This document shows positions 3,001-12,000 of a stretch of DNA of 17,425 nucleotides, in pieces (position 1 is the stretch's first letter; every line of letters begins with the position of its first letter). The stretch spans positions 1-17,425 of the forward strand of contig DAHWNL010000074.1 in assembly GCA_027339965.1 (NCBI GenBank). Reading direction: 5' to 3'. Position numbers: made by a program. The DNA comes from Granulicella sp. (GTDB lineage Bacteria; Acidobacteriota; Terriglobia; Terriglobales; Acidobacteriaceae).

Positions 3001-6000
3001 CTCAGAGCCTAATGCGGGAGAGAATCTCGCCAGAGGACTTGCTCGACACGCCAGCCGGTTCCGCAAACTCTGGCCATTTCGCAACCGCACTCCGGACTCT
3101 CGTCAGAATCTCTGGAACATGTTTGAGCCGGTGGCGCTTGCCCAGGGCTTGCAACTCCGCGGTGGTCGGATCTTTGCCTTCGCCCATCAGGAGCATGCTC
3201 TGTTCGCCGCCGGGCAAGGCTTGACCAGGAAGATTACCGTCACAGTCCAACGAATCTCGCCGAAGTGTGGCGATAGTCTCAGGTCACGGATCTGGCGTTG
3301 CCGGGAGGTAGGTATCCAAGCGCCAAGATTCTTGCGCCAATGTTATGTCTGGGTGGATTGTGGCTTGCCGAGGCCGAGGTGAGCCTTGGTCACTCCGTTC
3401 CTCGCTCACGCCGGGGCGCTTTTCCCAGGTTGGGGGCCGATTGTGGCCGTCGAGAGGTAGGCCGACGAAATGAACAATCCCGTCAAAGCTGATACTCCGT
3501 GGAGCCCGGATCTAGTGATTCGATTGCCGAGGCTGGCATCCTGCGAACTCAAATCTCGAAGAGGCCGGGATGTGGGGCACCCGGCGCCCGCACCTGGGAT
3601 GGTCAGGAGAAGCGAGATCTGGGGTCGCGGGAGCAGAGCCGGACGGGTCGATGGTCCCGACTTGGTGGCGTCTGGAGCGGATGGGTATACTGCCTTTGCC
3701 GAGATCCTCAGGTGCGTGTGTACGGCTCGATGCGCAACAAAGCTTATCGACATGCTGGTTCCGCCCTGGCCGTCGCAAAAGCTATGCCGAACCCTGCCGG
3801 GTAGCCGTGGGAGCGAATGAAGTATCCAGAGATCATCAACTCGCGCATGGAACGCCTTCGCATCAAGCTCGAAGGCGTTTCCAAGCGATTGCGTGAACCG
3901 GTCTGGTTTCCCCACGTTCCTCTGGCCCTGATGCTGTGGCTGGCGGGCTTCTGGGTCTTGCAGGGAGACTGGGGCAACCACTGGTTTGCGGGGCTTCGCT
4001 CGCTGGCGAATGGAGATTTTTATTTCAATCTCCAGATGCACAAGCTGCCGTCCTTGTTCATCGGCAGCGGCATGCTCATCATGGGGTTCGCTCTGCTGTG
4101 GCGCTCCCGTCTGGCATGGATAGTGGCCTTGCTGCTGGCGGTGACGGCAACCACCAACACGGTGCTGGGCAGACACGCCCACGCGGGGCCTTTATCTACT
4201 TACTTCCTGCTGATCGTGGTTGCGCTGCTGGTTACTTGGCGGAGCTTTGACCGATCAAGCGTAGCGGCTAGCACGCTCTTCGCCGTCACCTCCGGCTTGA
4301 TGCTGCTGCTGTACGCTACCTTTGGCGCGTACTACCTTGGAGCGGGGTTCACGCCGCCGATCAACAATCTGGTGACCGCCCTCTACTACTCCATGGTCAC
4401 CATGAGCACGGTGGGGTATGGAGACATCGTCCCGAGAACCGATGAGGCGCGGCTGTTTACGGTCTCGGTGATCATTCTCGGCGTGGCCGTCTTTGCCACG
4501 TCACTCACGGCGGTGATTGCTCCTTTGGTGAGCCGAAGCCTGCTGCGTATCGTTAACCGGAGGAGTCCCCAGATGAAACGGCATCACCACTATGTTGTCG
4601 TGGGTAACACGTCGCTGGCTATCAATACCGCGCAAGAACTGGAAAAGCGCGGCCTGGTTGTGGTGCGCATCCTGAGGGAAGCGGTCGACGCGGCAGAGGC
4701 CAAGGGCTCGAAGGTCGTGCTGGGAGATCCCAGCACGGCGGAGACACTGCGTCAGGCGGACGCCGAGCAGGCCACTGCCGTATTGGCCATGCTGGACGAT
4801 GATGCGGAGAACGCGTTTGTGACGCTGGCCATGCGAGAGCTCGCTCCCGGCGTTCGCATCGTTGCCGCCGTGAATGACGCCCGTCAGTTGAACAAGGTCA
4901 AGCTTGCTCAGCCGGATGTGGTGATTGCCCCCCAGGTGCTGGGTGGGGAGCTCACGGCTATGCTGTTGGCCGGTGAGACGATCACCTCTGACTTTGTGAT
5001 GCAGCACGTCTTCCAGAATCTCAAAACGGGGACCTCGACCGGGGACTGATGCAGCTTTGTGTCTGGATGAGCGTCCTGCGAACCCACATCTCTGAAAAAC
5101 CGAGATGTGGGGCACCCGCGTCGTCCTGCCAAAGAGCTTCCGGTGCGCTACTCGTAGAGCAGGTAGAGGCCGCGGGCGGCGAGGTATGTATTGAGCGCGG
5201 GCTGCCAGGATTTTGCGATGAGGCGGGGATCTTCGCCGCGCTCGATGGCGTCCAGCGTGGCTCGGCTGCCCAGCAGCCGCAAGGTCTTTGCAAGCTGGAA
5301 CTGCTGCGGGTAGAGGCGGTGCAGGATGCTCAGGATCTCTACGCCCATCTCCGGGGAGTCCAGGGCGCGGCGGTCTGTGAGGGTCATCCGTACTGCCGGG
5401 ATCGTCTGGCCGCGAAAGGGATAGCGATTGGCGGAGTCGGTGACCGTCGCGGTGGTGGCCGTGAAGGTGACGCCCGGGATCTGTCGCCGGTTCAATGCCC
5501 GCGCGACCTCCGCAGCGTTCATCCAAGAGGCTCCGAAGAGGGAAAAGGAGGAATCCGTGCCGCGTCCGGCTGAGACGCCCGTGAAGTCCAGAAGGCCAAG
5601 ACCTGGGTAGAGTGTGGCCGCTGTCACTGAAGGCAGGTTGGGGCTGGGGTTGACCCAGGGCAGGCCGGTCTGGTCAAAGTACTCGTCACGCGACCAGTGC
5701 TGCAGCGGGACGACCGTGAGGTCGGAGTCGAGGTGCTTGACGCCAACGATGTACTCGGCCAGCTCTCCCAGCGTCATGCCGTTGCGAACCGGCAGCGGCA
5801 TGAAGTCGATGTAGTCTCCCGGCCCGGTGGTGAAGGCGGCGTCCGAGATCGGTCCCTGCACCTGAGAGCCGTCGATGAGGGCCGGGCGGTCAAGCACGAT
5901 GATCTTCAGGTCATGGTGATACTCGTTCTGCTCCTGCGCGGCGGCTTCAAGGAAGTATCCGGTGACCGTCTCATAGGTGTAGAAGCGCACGCCGACGTCC

Positions 6001-9000: not shown

Positions 9001-12000
9001 GCGAAGACGCGCACGCCCTCAGCAGCCGCTCGCATGACGAGGAACAGGCCGGCGGTAACCTTGTAGAGGGATGGTCCAAAGCGCTGATCGATGAGCTGAT
9101 AGGCGGTGAGCATCCGGCCGGCGAAGTAGCGGGGCAGAAAGAGAATGGCGACCACGATGCGGCCGATCATGTAGCCGATGACGACCTGGAGGAAACTGAA
9201 GTTCCCGGAGAAGGCGACACCGGGGATGGAGATGATGGTGAGCGTGGAGGTCTCCGCGGAGACGATGGAGAGCGAGATGGCCCACCAGGGGACGGTGTTG
9301 TTGGCCAGAAAGTAGCTGCGCAGCGAGCGGTCCGCGGGGGTGCCCGAGCCGGAGAGCTTGCGGAAGCGCAGACCAAAGAGGGTGATTCCCACCAGGTAAA
9401 CGGCGATCAGAGCGAGGTCAAAGGCTCGCAGGCGATGCGGGCCGGAAGGTTGCAGAAGGGTTGCTGCCAGGGATGAGACGTGGATGCCGGGCAAGGGGAT
9501 CTCCTGCTAGTGGGTTGGCGCGGAGCCTGGCGGGGCCGGGATCTGGGCCGGGATCTGGGCTGGAGTTGGGGATGGAGTTGGACCGGGGGATGGGGATGGG
9601 GTTGGGGACTGCGTTGGAGCGGGCTGCGGCTGCGGGGGTGGTGGAATGCCAAGGTCGGCGGCTGGAGGCAACGTTTTGGAATGACTCCACTGGCGCTGGG
9701 CGCTGCGTACCTTGTCGACGCGGGCATACCACTCTCCGATGGTGTAGTCGTAGTGTTCGAGTACGGGCCGAAGTCCATCCGGCTGGTAGGTTTTGTTCCA
9801 CTGTTCGGCGTACATGTCGCGCAGCCGGGAGTAGGTGGCGATGAGGTCCTGGAGGCGGCCGTTTACGCCGTTGATATCAGAGAGCAGAGCGGGGACGGAG
9901 GGTCTGGGCCGGGGAGCGTTCGGGTTGGTCTGCAAGGTTTGCATCTCAGCCTGCGCCTGGGCATACTCGGTGGCCATCTCATCGGCGAGCTGGAACTTGA
10001 GGCCCAGAAAGTCGATTCTGCGCGCGCCGAACTCCATCGCCGAGATCGCATCCGGCTGGCGCAGGTTCGGTTCCTGTGCCTTGGCCTGCGCGATGAGGGT
10101 CAGCGCGTGCTCCGCGTAAAGCCGCAGGGCGGAGTTGATGGGCCGCATGCGCGCGGCGACCACCTGCCCATCGCCGGACCAGGGATCGAGCCAGAACAAG
10201 CCGTCGGAGCCCTCCGTGGCGGCGATCACTTTGTTGTCATGCAGCAGCGTCATGGCGTTGGTCAGCTCATCCTTTGCCTGGTTCAGCAGCCCCAGCGGAT
10301 CTCCGAAGAAGACCTGGGCAAAGCTGTCCTGAAAGGCGGAGATGGAGGATGTGCCGCGCTGCCAGGCGGCGGCTGCGCCAAAGAGGATCCCATACCAGTT
10401 CATGTTGGCCAGCGATTCCCCGTCGTCGTTCCAAAGGGTGTTGAGCTGTCCTGTGGCGCCGTAGCGCTGGCCGTCGCGGGTGAACTGCTGGATATCTTCA
10501 AGCGCCAACTGCTGGTTGGGCCAGACCTGGCGGTAGTTGTTGATGGCGGGCGCGACCCAGACGGGAATTCCGGCCTGGGTGTAGGGGCGGAGGATGCGCA
10601 GGAATCCGTGAGGGTTGGGAGAGTATCCCCAGGCGACGGCGATGAGCTGATGCTTGATCTGCGCAGGGAGAGCCTTCAATAACTGGGGATCGCTCTGGGC
10701 GATGTCTCCCCAGAAGAGAATCCTGCGATGCAGCGGCTCCAGGCTGGTGACGATCTGCTTGAGGTAATCGATGTAGACGGCGCCCAGGCCTTGCGCGTCC
10801 ACCTGAGCGCGGGTGCGTCCGATGCCCAGGTCATAGGTCTCGTCGCCGCCGATATGCAGGAAGGGGCCGGGGTAGAGCAGGGCAAGCTCCTGGAAGATCT
10901 GGTCGATCAGCGGAATGGATCCAGGTTGGCCGGGGGCGAGGACGGCCCCATGGGGCGTCTCGGCGACATTGGCGTAGGTCTCCCAGAGGAGCAGGTTGTT
11001 GAGGTGGCCGATGGCCTCCTGCTCGGGGATCACCGTGATGTGGTACTTCTGCGCGTAGGCCACCAGTTGGCGAGCATCGGCGGCGGAGATGCTGCCCTGC
11101 GGCGGCGCGGGAAGGGGGTTGGAGGCATACTGCTGGGCGTCTTCAAAGTAGGGCGAATAGACGTTGATTTTGTAGGCGGCCAGGGTGCGGATCAACTTCA
11201 TCTGAAAGGCCAGGGTATCCACCGGGCCACGGGAGAGATCATCGTGCAGGCCACGGTAGCGCATCGCAGGCCAGTCGCGGATCTCCGCGGCGTGCAGCAC
11301 CATGCCGGAGGGCAGGCGCTCGAACATCTGCTTGGCGGTTTGCGCCGCATAGAACAGGCCGGCGCTGCTGGCTCCGGTCAAGGTCAGCGTGCGGTGCGCG
11401 TAGCGGATCGTGTAGCCTTCCGCGCGCATCTCCGCAGTGAAGCTGGAGTCCGGGTAGTGGGAGAGCCGATGCAGGACGATACGCAGTCCGCGGCCTGTCG
11501 GGACGCCGCGGTCTTGAAGGGTCTGGCTCAGGTCGTCGGCGGTGAACGCGTCCGGGGAGGAACAGGCGGGACAGAGGACTGTGACTGAGCCGACCGGTAT
11601 CGCCTGGACGTTGGCCACCTGCCGCGGCATCGGGATCAGGCGCAGGGCGAGCTGGGCAGCGGCCAGGGGCGGCGCTGAGGCCGCCGATAAAAGCGCTGCG
11701 GGCACCCATAAAAGCACCGCGGGCACCCAGAGCAGCGCCGCGCGGAGTGCGGCTGTGGCTGAACCAAGAGAGGAACCAAGAGATGGCATAAAGTTACGGT
11801 ACATCACCGCGCCGGATGGCAGAATGGCTTGGAGGCCGGTGGCGCAGCCCGGTGCCCCGCCGCTCCAGAAGCGCAGGACGAAGGATCGCGCCAAGGTCCG
11901 TGCGCCGCAGGCTTCGGGAAGGGTTTGTGGATCGGGTGTGAATCTGGGATAGACTCCAGGCAGAGAAATTGGAGGGGAGGGTTCCGAACCATGCGCAAGG

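Follow-up and report, generated by a model that had tools for sequence, protein, structure and literature searches.

In B. subtilis, peptidoglycan is digested step by step by the joint action of NagZ, AmiE and NamZ (PMC8054146). The murQ-murR-murP-amiE-nagZ-namZ operon is described as providing three exo steps outside the cytoplasm, by which GlcNAc, peptide and MurNAc are taken off, with AmiE being a PF00144 protein, NamZ a member of GH171 and the products going to MurQ (PMC8054146, PMC10653849, PMC5061867). The same steps and units are proposed here for a locus on a 17,425 nucleotide stretch of DNA from Granulicella sp., a soil acidobacterium (contig DAHWNL010000074.1), hereafter referred to as the window. 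However, the parts differ. The GlcNAc-removing enzyme would be a GH20 protein in the window and is a GH3 protein in B. subtilis, the amidase-like and NamZ units form one chain rather than separate proteins, and in place of the PTS importer MurP there is an SSF symporter, the kinase being a protein of its own. Moreover, unlike in B. subtilis, the importer of the window is translationally fused to the enzymes.

A non-PTS MurNAc importer is described for the Gram-negative T. forsythia, where MurT-MurK-MurQ, including a BadF/BadG kinase (PF01869), operate together with periplasmic NamZ1/2 (PMC5790795, PMC10465942, bioRxiv 10.1101/2021.12.02.470905). MurT has been placed in both the "sodium symporter superfamily" and the "major facilitator superfamily" (PMC5790795) and has been called a "novel transporter family" (PMC7670621); its comparison with the SSF domain of the window is by description only. 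The T. forsythia system has no fusions, whereas that of the window is fused. In E. coli murQ-murP-yfeW, the gene of the Beta-lactamase-fold protein PBP4B adjoins those of a MurNAc importer and an etherase (PMC5061867). PBP4B, which has been reported to be a low-affinity PBP or a DD-carboxypeptidase, is a separate protein; the corresponding domain of the window is fused and scores below the PBP4B equivalog cut-off. An N-terminal signal peptide followed by these two enzyme domains, Bla first and NamZ second as in the window, makes up the Bla-NamZ bi-fusions ("DDPept-DUF1343", "YbbC/CubicO peptidase"), an architecture listed in a 2008 survey (PMC2605481). Among the 150 best relatives of the window's Beta-lactamase-fold (Bla) domain, 33 of the 58 scanned are of this type, combining Bla and NamZ without SSF, so that its nearest relatives are mostly such bi-fusions. 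Unlike the protein of the window, the bi-fusions lack a transporter and are exported in soluble form, with a length of about 780-840 aa; among the papers found, none gives them a function. Finally, CbrA-type fusions of an SSS core and a sensor kinase are a precedent for C-terminal extra domains on such a core (PMC7918813); there the extra domains are cytoplasmic signalling modules, whereas those of the window are predicted to be hydrolases of the periplasm, which an added signal peptide would carry out of the cytoplasm.

A fused gene, its partner and their relatives

The fused gene (5148..9494, minus strand) is a single frame of 1448 aa. Reading the sequence places its start codon, TTG, at 9494-9492, preceded by a ribosome-binding site (feature 9492..9505, minus strand) with AGGAG at 9505-9501 and a 6-nt spacer. 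Pfam matches above cut-off were obtained for SSF (residues 61-463, E 1.5e-37), Beta-lactamase (PF00144, 576-986, E 4.1e-61), NamZ_N (1073-1290, E 7.4e-63) and NamZ_C (1295-1447, E 4e-35), bearing out the first-pass annotation, which had described a fusion of these units in one frame. The second gene of the pair (9507..11804, minus strand) encodes a GH20 beta-N-acetylhexosaminidase-like protein of 765 aa, with Glyco_hydro_20b (55-178) and Glyco_hydro_20 (182-377) both above cut-off, a hydrophobic export signal at the N-terminus and a Pro-rich tail at the C-terminus. Residues H317, D321 and E322 of its H-x-G-x-D-E motif are invariant in all 50 sequences compared. The two genes do run in the same direction, as had been annotated, but GH20 does not follow the fused gene: on the minus strand it lies upstream and opens the pair, its TAG stop (9509-9507) being separated from the fused gene by 12 nt. 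A GH20 ortholog is present in 52-55 of 77 loci, 54 when counted upstream on the same strand.

Unfused neighbours and the fused form can differ by no more than a single stop codon, and the long frame could therefore be an artefact of mis-assembly, or of a sequencing error that erased the stop codon between two genes. This explanation, which includes the assembly join that the first-pass annotation had considered unlikely, is refuted by several sets of data. All four Pfam families occur in each of the 120 protein clusters listed (62-100% identity), and a relative is encoded in 597 of 603 candidate stretches (contigs, one genome per species), isolates of Tunturiibacter, Edaphobacter, Terriglobus and Granulicella among them. 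An uninterrupted frame of more than 1250 aa was found in 58 of 76 fetched loci, complete isolate chromosomes included. Contigs from two studies also carry the fused frame: that of run X1 (10,448 nt) covers 5000-11181 and that of run X5 (13,082 nt) covers 5000-12000, with six substitutions and no gap relative to the window. No indels against the window are listed in any of four runs, one of which may be the source of the window itself. We regard the artefact as having next to no probability.

The arrangement had also been called conserved in Acidobacteriota, which proved too broad. Of the family's genus representatives, 117 have the SSF ortholog, and the fused form was seen in only 8 of them; in most, the genes are separate, adjacent in some genomes and apart in others. 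Sister genera have the same genes unfused in the order GH20, SSF, Bla-NamZ with stop and start codons touching. Three abutting genes in this order are found in G495 and G428, while G221 and G050 have the order SIS deaminase, BadF kinase, SSF, Bla-NamZ. In G062, an SSF protein of 517 aa ends in a stop codon and is followed by a Bla-NamZ protein beginning MGRRAFVLCAVLLLACAPLVVA|QQ. Many genomes have the SSF ortholog at a great distance from Bla-NamZ; counted by eye among genomes with both halves in the top 150 rows, they lie at most 7 kb apart in about 7 and far apart or on different contigs in about 21. A quick tree requires at least three fusion or fission events. The fusion probably originated in an operon in which an SSF gene stood directly before a Bla-NamZ gene with a signal peptide of its own. 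When the stop codon was lost, this signal peptide would have become an internal 14th span, which would start in the cytoplasm after helix 13 and carry the enzyme half across the membrane.

The transporter core and the junction

The SSF (solute:cation symporter) core comprises residues 24-510 (7965..9425, minus strand). TIGR00813 matches it with 209 bits (cut-off 184), and its best Foldseek match is SiaT (5nva, E 3.3e-19, TM 0.86), a resemblance also seen by phmmer, which in addition aligns residues 24-548 with residues 30-561 of NIS. The AlphaFold2 model has a mean pLDDT of 84, core blocks being mostly at about 85-97. SiaT is described as having 13 helices, a periplasmic N-terminus and a cytoplasmic C-terminus (PMC5931594). 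The transporter is a 13-helix SiaT/NIS-type core (N-out, C-in). Directly after helix 13 follow RRK and one further hydrophobic span (523-546). The count of about 11-13 spans given earlier is thereby corrected to 13 in the core plus this one. Because the core ends C-in and is followed by RRK and one extra span, the enzyme domains face the periplasm, as far as sequence can settle this. The carboxylate-binding Arg135 of SiaT aligns with Ala158 of the core; an invariant Arg155 lies one turn before it and is suggestive only as a counterpart. The second serine of the Na2 site is replaced by Asn363, so that coupling to Na+ is not certain. From its context only, we infer that the substrate is MurNAc and/or GlcNAc.

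The junction (residues 516-551; 7842..7949, minus strand) consists of an RRK n-region, a hydrophobic h-region (AVGLIALTATLLSLPLL) and a c-region that closes with ARAGHA|Q. Judged by these features, what reads as a 14th helix is a Sec signal peptide that the enzyme half has retained. The n-region carries a net positive charge in all 59 sequences compared, and the uncharged run has a median length of 17 (range 11-27), i.e. a short, variable h-region. Of the 59 junction windows, 45 contain the dipeptide AQ, against 226 of 1088 background windows from the same proteins, and the Bla-NamZ genes of split orthologs begin with the same kind of signal peptide. With the 14th span being a signal peptide, the enzyme domains would be periplasmic and signal peptidase may cut. 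In the Bradyrhizobium cytochrome b/c1 precursor FbcH, a membrane domain is linked through an internal signal peptide to an exported domain, and signal peptidase cuts to give two working proteins; for the protein of the window the same cut is only predicted. We lean slightly towards a cut by signal peptidase I at the conserved A|Q site, behind these residues' alanine-containing motif, by which Bla-NamZ would be set free as a soluble enzyme of about 900 aa and the transporter would keep the signal peptide as a tail. Hence, the "one-polypeptide machine" of the first-pass annotation may yield two mature proteins.

Somewhat less probably, the polypeptide stays uncut, as first annotated, and the internal signal peptide serves as an anchor, leaving the amidase and the muramidase tethered over the mouth of the transporter. 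Across genera the fusion has been preserved at 55-90% identity, and it has more than one origin, which suggests some advantage beyond co-expression. Moreover, no start codon was found at the junction in the window sequence, so the enzyme half is made only as part of the fusion. With a 17-residue core in a 24-residue uncharged run, the h-region of the window is longer than is usual in signal peptides, but those of several relatives go down to 10-12 residues (L005, L006, L068, L073), too short for a stable span. Also in favour of an anchor is the view that membrane-bound hydrolases do not get far into the wall (PMC10653849). Against an anchor, the A|Q motif is kept, while the adjoining linker is hypervariable, without any conservation. 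In the AlphaFold2 model the helix (527-543, pLDDT 50-64) is unpacked against the core, with residues 546-563 below 50, and the majority state of the family is unfused, with a plainly cleavable signal peptide. An uncut protein would have a flexible tether of 10-110 residues.

Enzyme domains and a proposed salvage route

The Bla domain (residues 576-986; 6537..7769, minus strand) is a serine Beta-lactamase/S12-fold domain of AmiE/PBP4B type, assigned by PF00144 and invariant motifs. The SxxK annotated at 633 was found as SLSK (633-636), and all 59 sequences compared share S633, K636, Y728, S729, D730, N732, H959, T960 and G961. The domain aligns with E. coli YfeW (PBP4B) over the full length (29% identity, E 6e-43), although the PBP4B equivalog model gives 144 bits, far under its cut-off of 385. 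It is likened to B. subtilis AmiE by shared family, not by alignment. The first-pass annotation had given the domain no assignment; it is best read as a putative muropeptide amidase or peptidase of AmiE/PBP4B type. A DD-/LD-carboxypeptidase or endopeptidase that only trims stem peptides, with another amidase clearing MurNAc for NamZ, appears rather unlikely. PBP4B, then AmpH, are the best curated family matches, PBP4B is cited as a DD-carboxypeptidase, not an amidase (PMC5061867), and SxxK, YSD and HTG motifs are typical of acyl-serine peptidases. Nevertheless, NamZ is described as acting only on peptide-free MurNAc ends (bioRxiv 10.1101/2021.12.02.470905, PMC8054146), so that a fused partner freeing these ends makes most sense. 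AmiE, also PF00144, is a proven exo-amidase encoded in one operon with NamZ (PMC10653849, PMC8054146), and the fusion of 33 of 58 scanned near relatives to NamZ likewise favours the amidase reading.

The NamZ (GH171) exo-beta-N-acetylmuramidase domain (residues 1073-1447; 5154..6278, minus strand) is matched by PDB 4k05 (E 1.4e-41), and none of the 59 sequences compared departs from E1112 (PEHG) or R1311 (GRGT). It is the sole NamZ_N match of the whole genome. This genome also encodes two MurQ above cut-off and AnmK. No match to PTS_EIIC was found in it, and its best score for an AmpG-type importer is 22 bits (cut-off 350). Some MurNAc importer is therefore needed. The window itself lacks kinase, NagA and MurQ, which are encoded on other contigs; among the 77 loci, 32 have NagA (TIGR00221 above cut-off) and 34 a divergent BadF/BadG sugar kinase. 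All catalytic motifs are intact, and GH20 upstream, NagA and kinase in the loci, two MurQ and AnmK fit the peptidoglycan/amino-sugar salvage setting first suggested.

GH20 and SSF-Bla-NamZ probably constitute a periplasmic, exo-acting route for peptidoglycan fragments that works from the non-reducing end and includes sugar import. Exported GH20 would take off terminal GlcNAc, the Bla domain, a serine hydrolase, would remove or trim the stem peptide on the now terminal MurNAc, and NamZ, by family assignment, would release MurNAc. The 13-helix SSF domain would import MurNAc and/or GlcNAc with a cation, and BadF/BadG kinase, MurQ (two copies), NagA and SIS deaminase, whose genes are present, would pass the sugar to metabolism. 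The locus could instead serve mainly GlcNAc glycans other than peptidoglycan (chitin oligomers, N-glycans), with SSF importing GlcNAc only and NamZ having another exo-hexosaminidase specificity. Its conserved neighbours are indeed those of a GlcNAc pathway (NagK-like kinase, NagA, NagB-II/GlmD-like SIS deaminase), MurQ is absent from the locus, a GH20 paralog on contig C79 adjoins GH18 and GH35 genes, and TfNamZ1 indicates that specificities differ within GH171 (bioRxiv 10.1101/2021.12.02.470905). However, the characterised GH171 members, as described, all act on MurNAc ends (PMC8054146, bioRxiv 10.1101/2021.12.02.470905), a Bla partner has no role in chitin use, and two MurQ and AnmK are kept without a MurP or AmpG-type match. 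We consider this alternative improbable.

New here are the 13-helix core, the signal-peptide junction, the predicted periplasmic side of the enzymes with a possible cut, the unfused sister forms, the kinship of the Bla domain with Bla-NamZ proteins and PBP4B, and the presence of two MurQ and AnmK in a genome with no PTS EIIC or AmpG-type hit. The salvage route is best read as a known pathway, varied: an acidobacterial form of what NagZ, AmiE and NamZ do in B. subtilis, here linked to an importer outside the PTS. If the enzymes stay tethered, freed sugar would be captured at once and the enzymes would be kept off the cell's own sacculus. A single long protein joins a putative sugar importer to two wall-fragment enzymes, and the pieces may separate after export.

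The fused gene and its GH20 partner

The source genome comprises 3.8 Mb in 88 contigs (completeness 98.9%), and the window is one whole contig of 17,425 bp. On its minus strand the fused gene (5148-9494) forms a single open frame of 1448 aa with a TTG start. Pfam profiles place four domains along the product: SSF at residues 61-463 (PF00474, 129.9 bits against a cut-off of 22.8), Beta-lactamase at 576-986 (PF00144, 207 bits), NamZ_N at 1073-1290 (212 bits) and NamZ_C at 1295-1447 (122 bits), the last three far above their cut-offs. A GH20-like gene (9507-11804, minus strand, 765 aa) lies directly upstream; the first-pass annotation had put it after the fused gene, an order that the shared minus strand reverses. 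Read from the sequence, AGGAG comes after the TAG stop of the GH20 gene and stands six bases ahead of the fused gene's TTG, and we therefore read both genes as one unit. The GH20 product matches Glyco_hydro_20 (57.7 bits) and Glyco_hydro_20b (51.2 bits) in Pfam and has the catalytic H-x-G-x-D-E, in which H317, D321 and E322 are invariant in all 50 orthologs; the profile matches span only residues 55-377 of 765. Its C-terminal half is conserved among the orthologs, carries no assigned family and ends in a Pro/Thr/Ser-rich tail (window 9507-9650, minus strand).

The long single frame is real. SSF, Beta-lactamase, NamZ_N and NamZ_C occur together in all 120 protein clusters listed (62-100% identity, 1299-1540 aa), several of which sit on contigs of 3.8-4.8 Mb. 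Scanning one genome per species yielded 603 candidate stretches, 597 of them confirmed relatives; 77 loci were kept, isolates of Tunturiibacter, Edaphobacter aggregans, Terriglobus albidus and Granulicella among them, and the frame runs unbroken for more than 1250 aa in 58 of 76 loci. Public-run contigs from two different studies, one of which may be the window's own source, cover the entire fused gene with six substitutions and no indel. One low-depth contig, from public run X10, links 7861 to 9424 through 18 foreign letters, which would delete almost exactly the SSF core (residues 24-545). This join is weakly supported (depth 3.3, short side of 21 letters), falls under the reliability thresholds and was not used. 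Among the public RNA data searched, no match to the junction stretch was listed.

The junction between transporter and enzymes

The transporter half exceeds the cut-off of the NCBIfam sodium/solute symporter superfamily model (TIGR00813, 209.2 bits against 184) and is nearest by sequence to the sialic-acid symporter SiaT, and also to NIS, SMVT and SMCT1. An AlphaFold2 model of residues 1-600, built from 58 sequences, reached a mean pLDDT of 84, with a 13-helix core mostly at about 85-97. Foldseek matched this model best to SiaT (5nva, E 3.3e-19, TM 0.86), followed by NIS and SMCT1. SiaT has 13 helices, a periplasmic N-terminus and a cytoplasmic C-terminus (PMC5931594). The SSF half is thus modelled as a LeuT-type fold with a 13-helix core, N-out/C-in like SiaT and NIS. 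Equivalence to NIS helix 13 rests on one long phmmer stretch together with the fold match; a separate phmmer stretch pairing that helix with residues 485-518 is not significant alone (i-Evalue 650).

Past helix 13 (489-510) the chain runs through SPSRRK, a hydrophobic stretch at 523-546 and ARAGHAQS. On a count of 13 + 1 spans, the chain beyond about residue 550 is predicted to be periplasmic, the joint being, on this reading, a retained signal peptide. NamZ and AmiE are known to be exported, in keeping with this placing (PMC8054146; bioRxiv 10.1101/2021.12.02.470905). The junction was aligned across 59 fused proteins. The stretch following helix 13 carries a net positive charge in all 59; the uncharged run after it has a median length of 17 residues (range 11-27; 39 proteins have 17 or fewer) and shows no sequence conservation. 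The shortest runs, of 11-12 residues with hydrophobic cores of 10-12, occur in five loci (L005, L006, L030, L068 and L073). The run ends in a c-region of small residues, and 45 of the 59 proteins have "AQ" there; the background is 226 of 1088 equal-length windows from soluble parts of the same proteins, related sequences and not independent samples. A linker of about 10 to 110 residues then leads to the conserved start of the beta-lactamase-fold (Bla) domain, (P)DF..VS.L. Judged by these features, the junction has the anatomy of a Sec signal peptide, a putative n-h-c element ahead of the enzyme half. In the AlphaFold2 model the junction helix (527-543) has a pLDDT of 50-64, and residues 546-563 lie below 50.

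Unfused relatives show where the junction would come from, namely the N-terminal signal peptide of a Bla-NamZ gene. In G062, a genome of another genus of the same family, the SSF gene stops after helix 13 and the Bla-NamZ gene follows 137 nt on, its product beginning with MGRRAFVLCAVLLLACAPLVVA/QQ, where the slash marks the predicted cleavage site. The Bla-NamZ signal peptides of G495 and G428 end in AFA/Q, and their genes abut or overlap the SSF stop. Bla-NamZ proteins of other lineages have an N-terminus of the same signal-peptide kind. With the signal peptide as the span that is otherwise missing, the loss of the stop codon between a C-in membrane protein and a secreted protein would be tolerated.

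An internal translation start that gives a separate enzyme half was ruled out: in the window no ATG, GTG or TTG stands ahead of the h-region, which leaves translation of the whole fusion as the only source of the enzyme half. We lean towards cleavage by signal peptidase I at the conserved A/Q site, which we consider somewhat probable, because A/Q is kept inside a segment that otherwise drifts freely and because some members have very short h-regions. If it is cut, the protein may still act as a natural polyprotein, in which membrane insertion of the transporter would deliver equal amounts of enzyme beside it. Were the helix left uncut, the protein could be a true enzyme-transporter machine, a reading that we regard as rather doubtful, with the amidase-muramidase pair on a short tether right above the symporter. 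Wall fragments would then be dismantled and MurNAc taken up at one spot, the breakdown of glycan outside the cytoplasm would be physically tied to a secondary transporter of the inner membrane, and potentially self-destructive exo-lytic enzymes would be kept off the cell's own sacculus. In place of the one-polypeptide machine of the first-pass view, the product may be two proteins, cut at A/Q.

Enzyme domains and a candidate importer

The active-site motifs S633-L-S-K636, Y728-S-D730 and H959-T-G961 of the Bla domain (residues 576-986) are invariant in 59 of 59 fused sequences, and the S, K, Y-S-D, H and G also in a wider alignment that includes 15 relatives in which Bla is joined to NamZ without SSF. 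The best NCBIfam match is PBP4B (NF002968), with 143.7 bits below the equivalog cut-off of 385, and the alignment to E. coli YfeW/PBP4B is full-length (29% identity, E 6e-43); in E. coli, yfeW comes after murQ and murP (PMC5061867). By the family models, SSF, PF00144, GH171 and GH20 are all represented at the locus, and the Bla domain is a relative of PBP4B, not its equivalog. The main rival reading holds that the domain is a DD-carboxypeptidase, the role reported for PBP4B.

At E <= 1e-30 the Bla domain has 1407 matches among 1.84 billion representative proteins. We scanned the domains of 58 of the best 150, mostly longer ones with a few of about 400-450 aa. Bla was joined to NamZ without SSF in 33, to SSF and NamZ in five and to SSF in one; it stood alone in 11, doubled in three, and was found with DUF4015 in two and with GH97, GH3_C or a class-A-like domain in one each. 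A 2008 survey (PMC2605481) had already listed the Bla-NamZ architecture, and such proteins are annotated elsewhere as "YbbC (DUF1343)/CubicO peptidase". B. subtilis AmiE (YbbE) belongs to PF00144 (PMC10653849) and is operon-linked to NamZ (PMC8054146). Because most of the scanned relatives join NamZ, and because NamZ enzymes require peptide-free MurNAc ends (bioRxiv 10.1101/2021.12.02.470905), we read the Bla domain by analogy as an AmiE-like predicted exo-amidase.

The NamZ half matches PDB 4k05 and 4jja (E 1e-41 and 2.5e-37), and NamZ_N and NamZ_C, both present over cut-off, assign it to GH171. E1112 (PEHG) and R1311 (GRGT) do not vary among the 59 fused proteins or in the wider alignment; judged by position only, they probably correspond to Glu92 and Arg279 of B. 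subtilis NamZ (PMC8054146). The export feature of the family, as in BsNamZ and TfNamZ1-3, is found here as the internal n-h-c element and in the unfused orthologs as N-terminal signal peptides. The genome has no second NamZ, the fused gene carrying its sole copy.

To the SSF half, gene context and only gene context assigns a role as candidate importer of MurNAc and/or GlcNAc. In the alignment to SiaT, the Na2-site residues S342 and S343 correspond to S362 and N363, so that one Na2 serine is kept and the other is Asn, and D182 and S345 correspond to D205 and S365. Among the aligned relatives S365 is invariant, and S362, N363 and D205 are each at least 90% conserved; the aligned fused proteins show no variation in the unwound-helix motif SAETSTLT or in R155, E159 and R162. 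The SiaT substrate residues Ser60 and Thr63 are S83 and T86 here, and Thr58 is E81. The carboxylate-binding Arg135 of SiaT (PMC5931594) is A158, with R155 one turn earlier. R155 near this position is suggestive of an acidic sugar, as a hint and no more.

Salvage genes recur around the fusion and in its genome. At the 77 loci, a GH20 ortholog occurs in 52-55; a NagA above the TIGR00221 cut-off is present in 32, and 34 have a divergent BadF/BadG kinase of NagK/MurK-like type. In the window's own genome, where all frames of at least 200 aa around such genes were scanned, contig C79 holds NagA and this kinase together with a GH20 paralog, a DeoR regulator and a SIS deaminase. The genome also encodes two MurQ over cut-off and AnmK. 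A profile search of it gave no PTS EIIC match and no AmpG-type match near the cut-off (best 22 bits against 350). A cell that lacks MurP and AmpG and yet consumes MurNAc/anhMurNAc must import it by some other protein, for which the SSF domain, joined to NamZ in one chain, would be the obvious candidate.

Several neighbours are recorded here as observations. On another contig of the same genome (C45, L090 5176-9030), one of the two MurQ genes lies between a class-A-type Beta-lactamase2 protein and a 427-aa EPSP_synthase-family gene, probably MurA. A 447-aa Hsp70/actin-fold protein, resembling the PRK11678 "molecular chaperone" family below its cut-off, stands between GH20 and the fused gene in 18 of the 77 loci (e.g. 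L013 5563-6906). The window itself carries, on the plus strand, an alpha-L-rhamnosidase-like gene (2-1984) that is 5'-truncated at the contig end, a Kch-like K+ channel with a TrkA_N domain (3817-5049, 414 bits against a cut-off of 425), an Amidohydro_2 protein divergent from GH20 (11829-12857; best NCBIfam match L-fucono-1,5-lactonase, 278 bits, cut-off 400) and a protein of 305 aa (12992-13909) that has TPR repeats and, at its N-terminus, a weak match to MerR HTH. An OPT-family oligopeptide transporter (14168-16420, plus strand; TIGR00733, 315 bits, over cut-off) begins 2.4 kb from the GH20 gene. It was set aside as a partner for released stem peptides, since it accompanies the fusion in only 3 of the 77 loci and is probably a chance neighbour.

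Spread of the fusion and its meaning

The spread of the fusion was surveyed in 141 genomes: the window's own and one from each of 140 genera within the family. An SSF ortholog at E <= 1e-80 was found in 117. The gene is fused (frame of at least 1250 aa) in eight of these, the window's own G000 and G249, G087, G308, G510, G496, G289 and G431; three are ambiguous, with frames of 817-879 aa, and the remainder, with frames of about 280-660 aa, have separate genes or fragments. Five unpublished genomes enter as counts and carry no other claim, G421 and G402 as separate or fragmentary and G049, G024 and G152 within the phylum tallies. The fusion had been called conserved in Acidobacteriota, which these numbers do not support. 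GH20, SSF and Bla-NamZ are consecutive and unfused in G495 and G428, as are SSF and Bla-NamZ in G443 and G062; in G221 and G050, of another family, the order is SIS deaminase, BadF kinase, SSF and Bla-NamZ, again unfused. Among the best 150 rows, genomes listing both halves have them within 7 kb in about seven cases and apart in about 21, as counted by eye. Genome G070, of a distant family, carries a fused gene too (1252 aa).

On a quick maximum-likelihood tree (56 SSF domains; IQ-TREE, midpoint root, SH-aLRT support) the fused/split label has to change four times, three of these changes being forced by well-supported branches, so fusion or fission happened repeatedly. This is easy to understand where one stop codon parts the genes. 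The sequence evidence makes the fusion a variant, recurrent and limited to certain clades, of an operon that is spread more widely.

Seven fused genes (L020, L025, L054, L061, L064, L065 and L074; 54-79% identity) lie on MAG contigs labelled Sphingomonas, Verrucomicrobia, Janthinobacterium lividum, Lichenicola or Novosphingobium. L025 and L064, the two placed in the tree, nest within Acidobacteriaceae, and the odd labels are likely to reflect binning or labelling error rather than transfer. Two unfused loci have additional neighbours. In G495, a 1247-aa TonB-dependent-receptor-like outer-membrane barrel comes after Bla-NamZ (L111 419-4162) and a GH2 gene ahead of GH20, a layout resembling a polysaccharide-utilisation locus that hints at outer-membrane uptake of fragments. 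In G443, the gene immediately ahead of SSF encodes a DUF5009 membrane protein (L110 7829-9064).

The initial proposal of peptidoglycan-fragment salvage coupled to uptake is right in substance, with three changes: a retained signal peptide, a possible cut and a clade-limited fusion. We propose that the system works like the NagZ/AmiE/NamZ route of B. subtilis and the NamZ + MurT/MurK/MurQ route of T. forsythia; the family of MurT is given inconsistently in PMC5790795 and PMC7670621. No published description of an SSF-Bla-NamZ protein was found in the open-access papers searched on NamZ, DUF1343/GH171 and acidobacterial peptidoglycan recycling or necromass, and NCBI names the fused relatives plainly "sodium/solute symporter". 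Known SSS-domain fusions carry cytoplasmic sensor-kinase modules (PMC7918813).

The whole appears to be a variant of known pathways, its interest lying mainly in the pointer to an importer, the function of Bla-NamZ and the fusion across the membrane. As a natural "Rosetta stone" it would link an uncharacterised clade of SSF symporters to peptidoglycan sugar uptake, and it supports an AmiE-like role for the widespread Bla-NamZ ("DDPept-DUF1343") proteins. It is also a neat case of gene fusion across a membrane and poses the question of cut versus tethered. Acidobacteriota are abundant soil bacteria with MurQ and AnmK, while the genome studied here gave no hit of MurP or AmpG type. For them the fusion offers a concrete candidate for a non-PTS MurNAc/GlcNAc importer, and it suggests that Acidobacteriaceae characteristically take apart the wall debris of bacteria in the periplasm.
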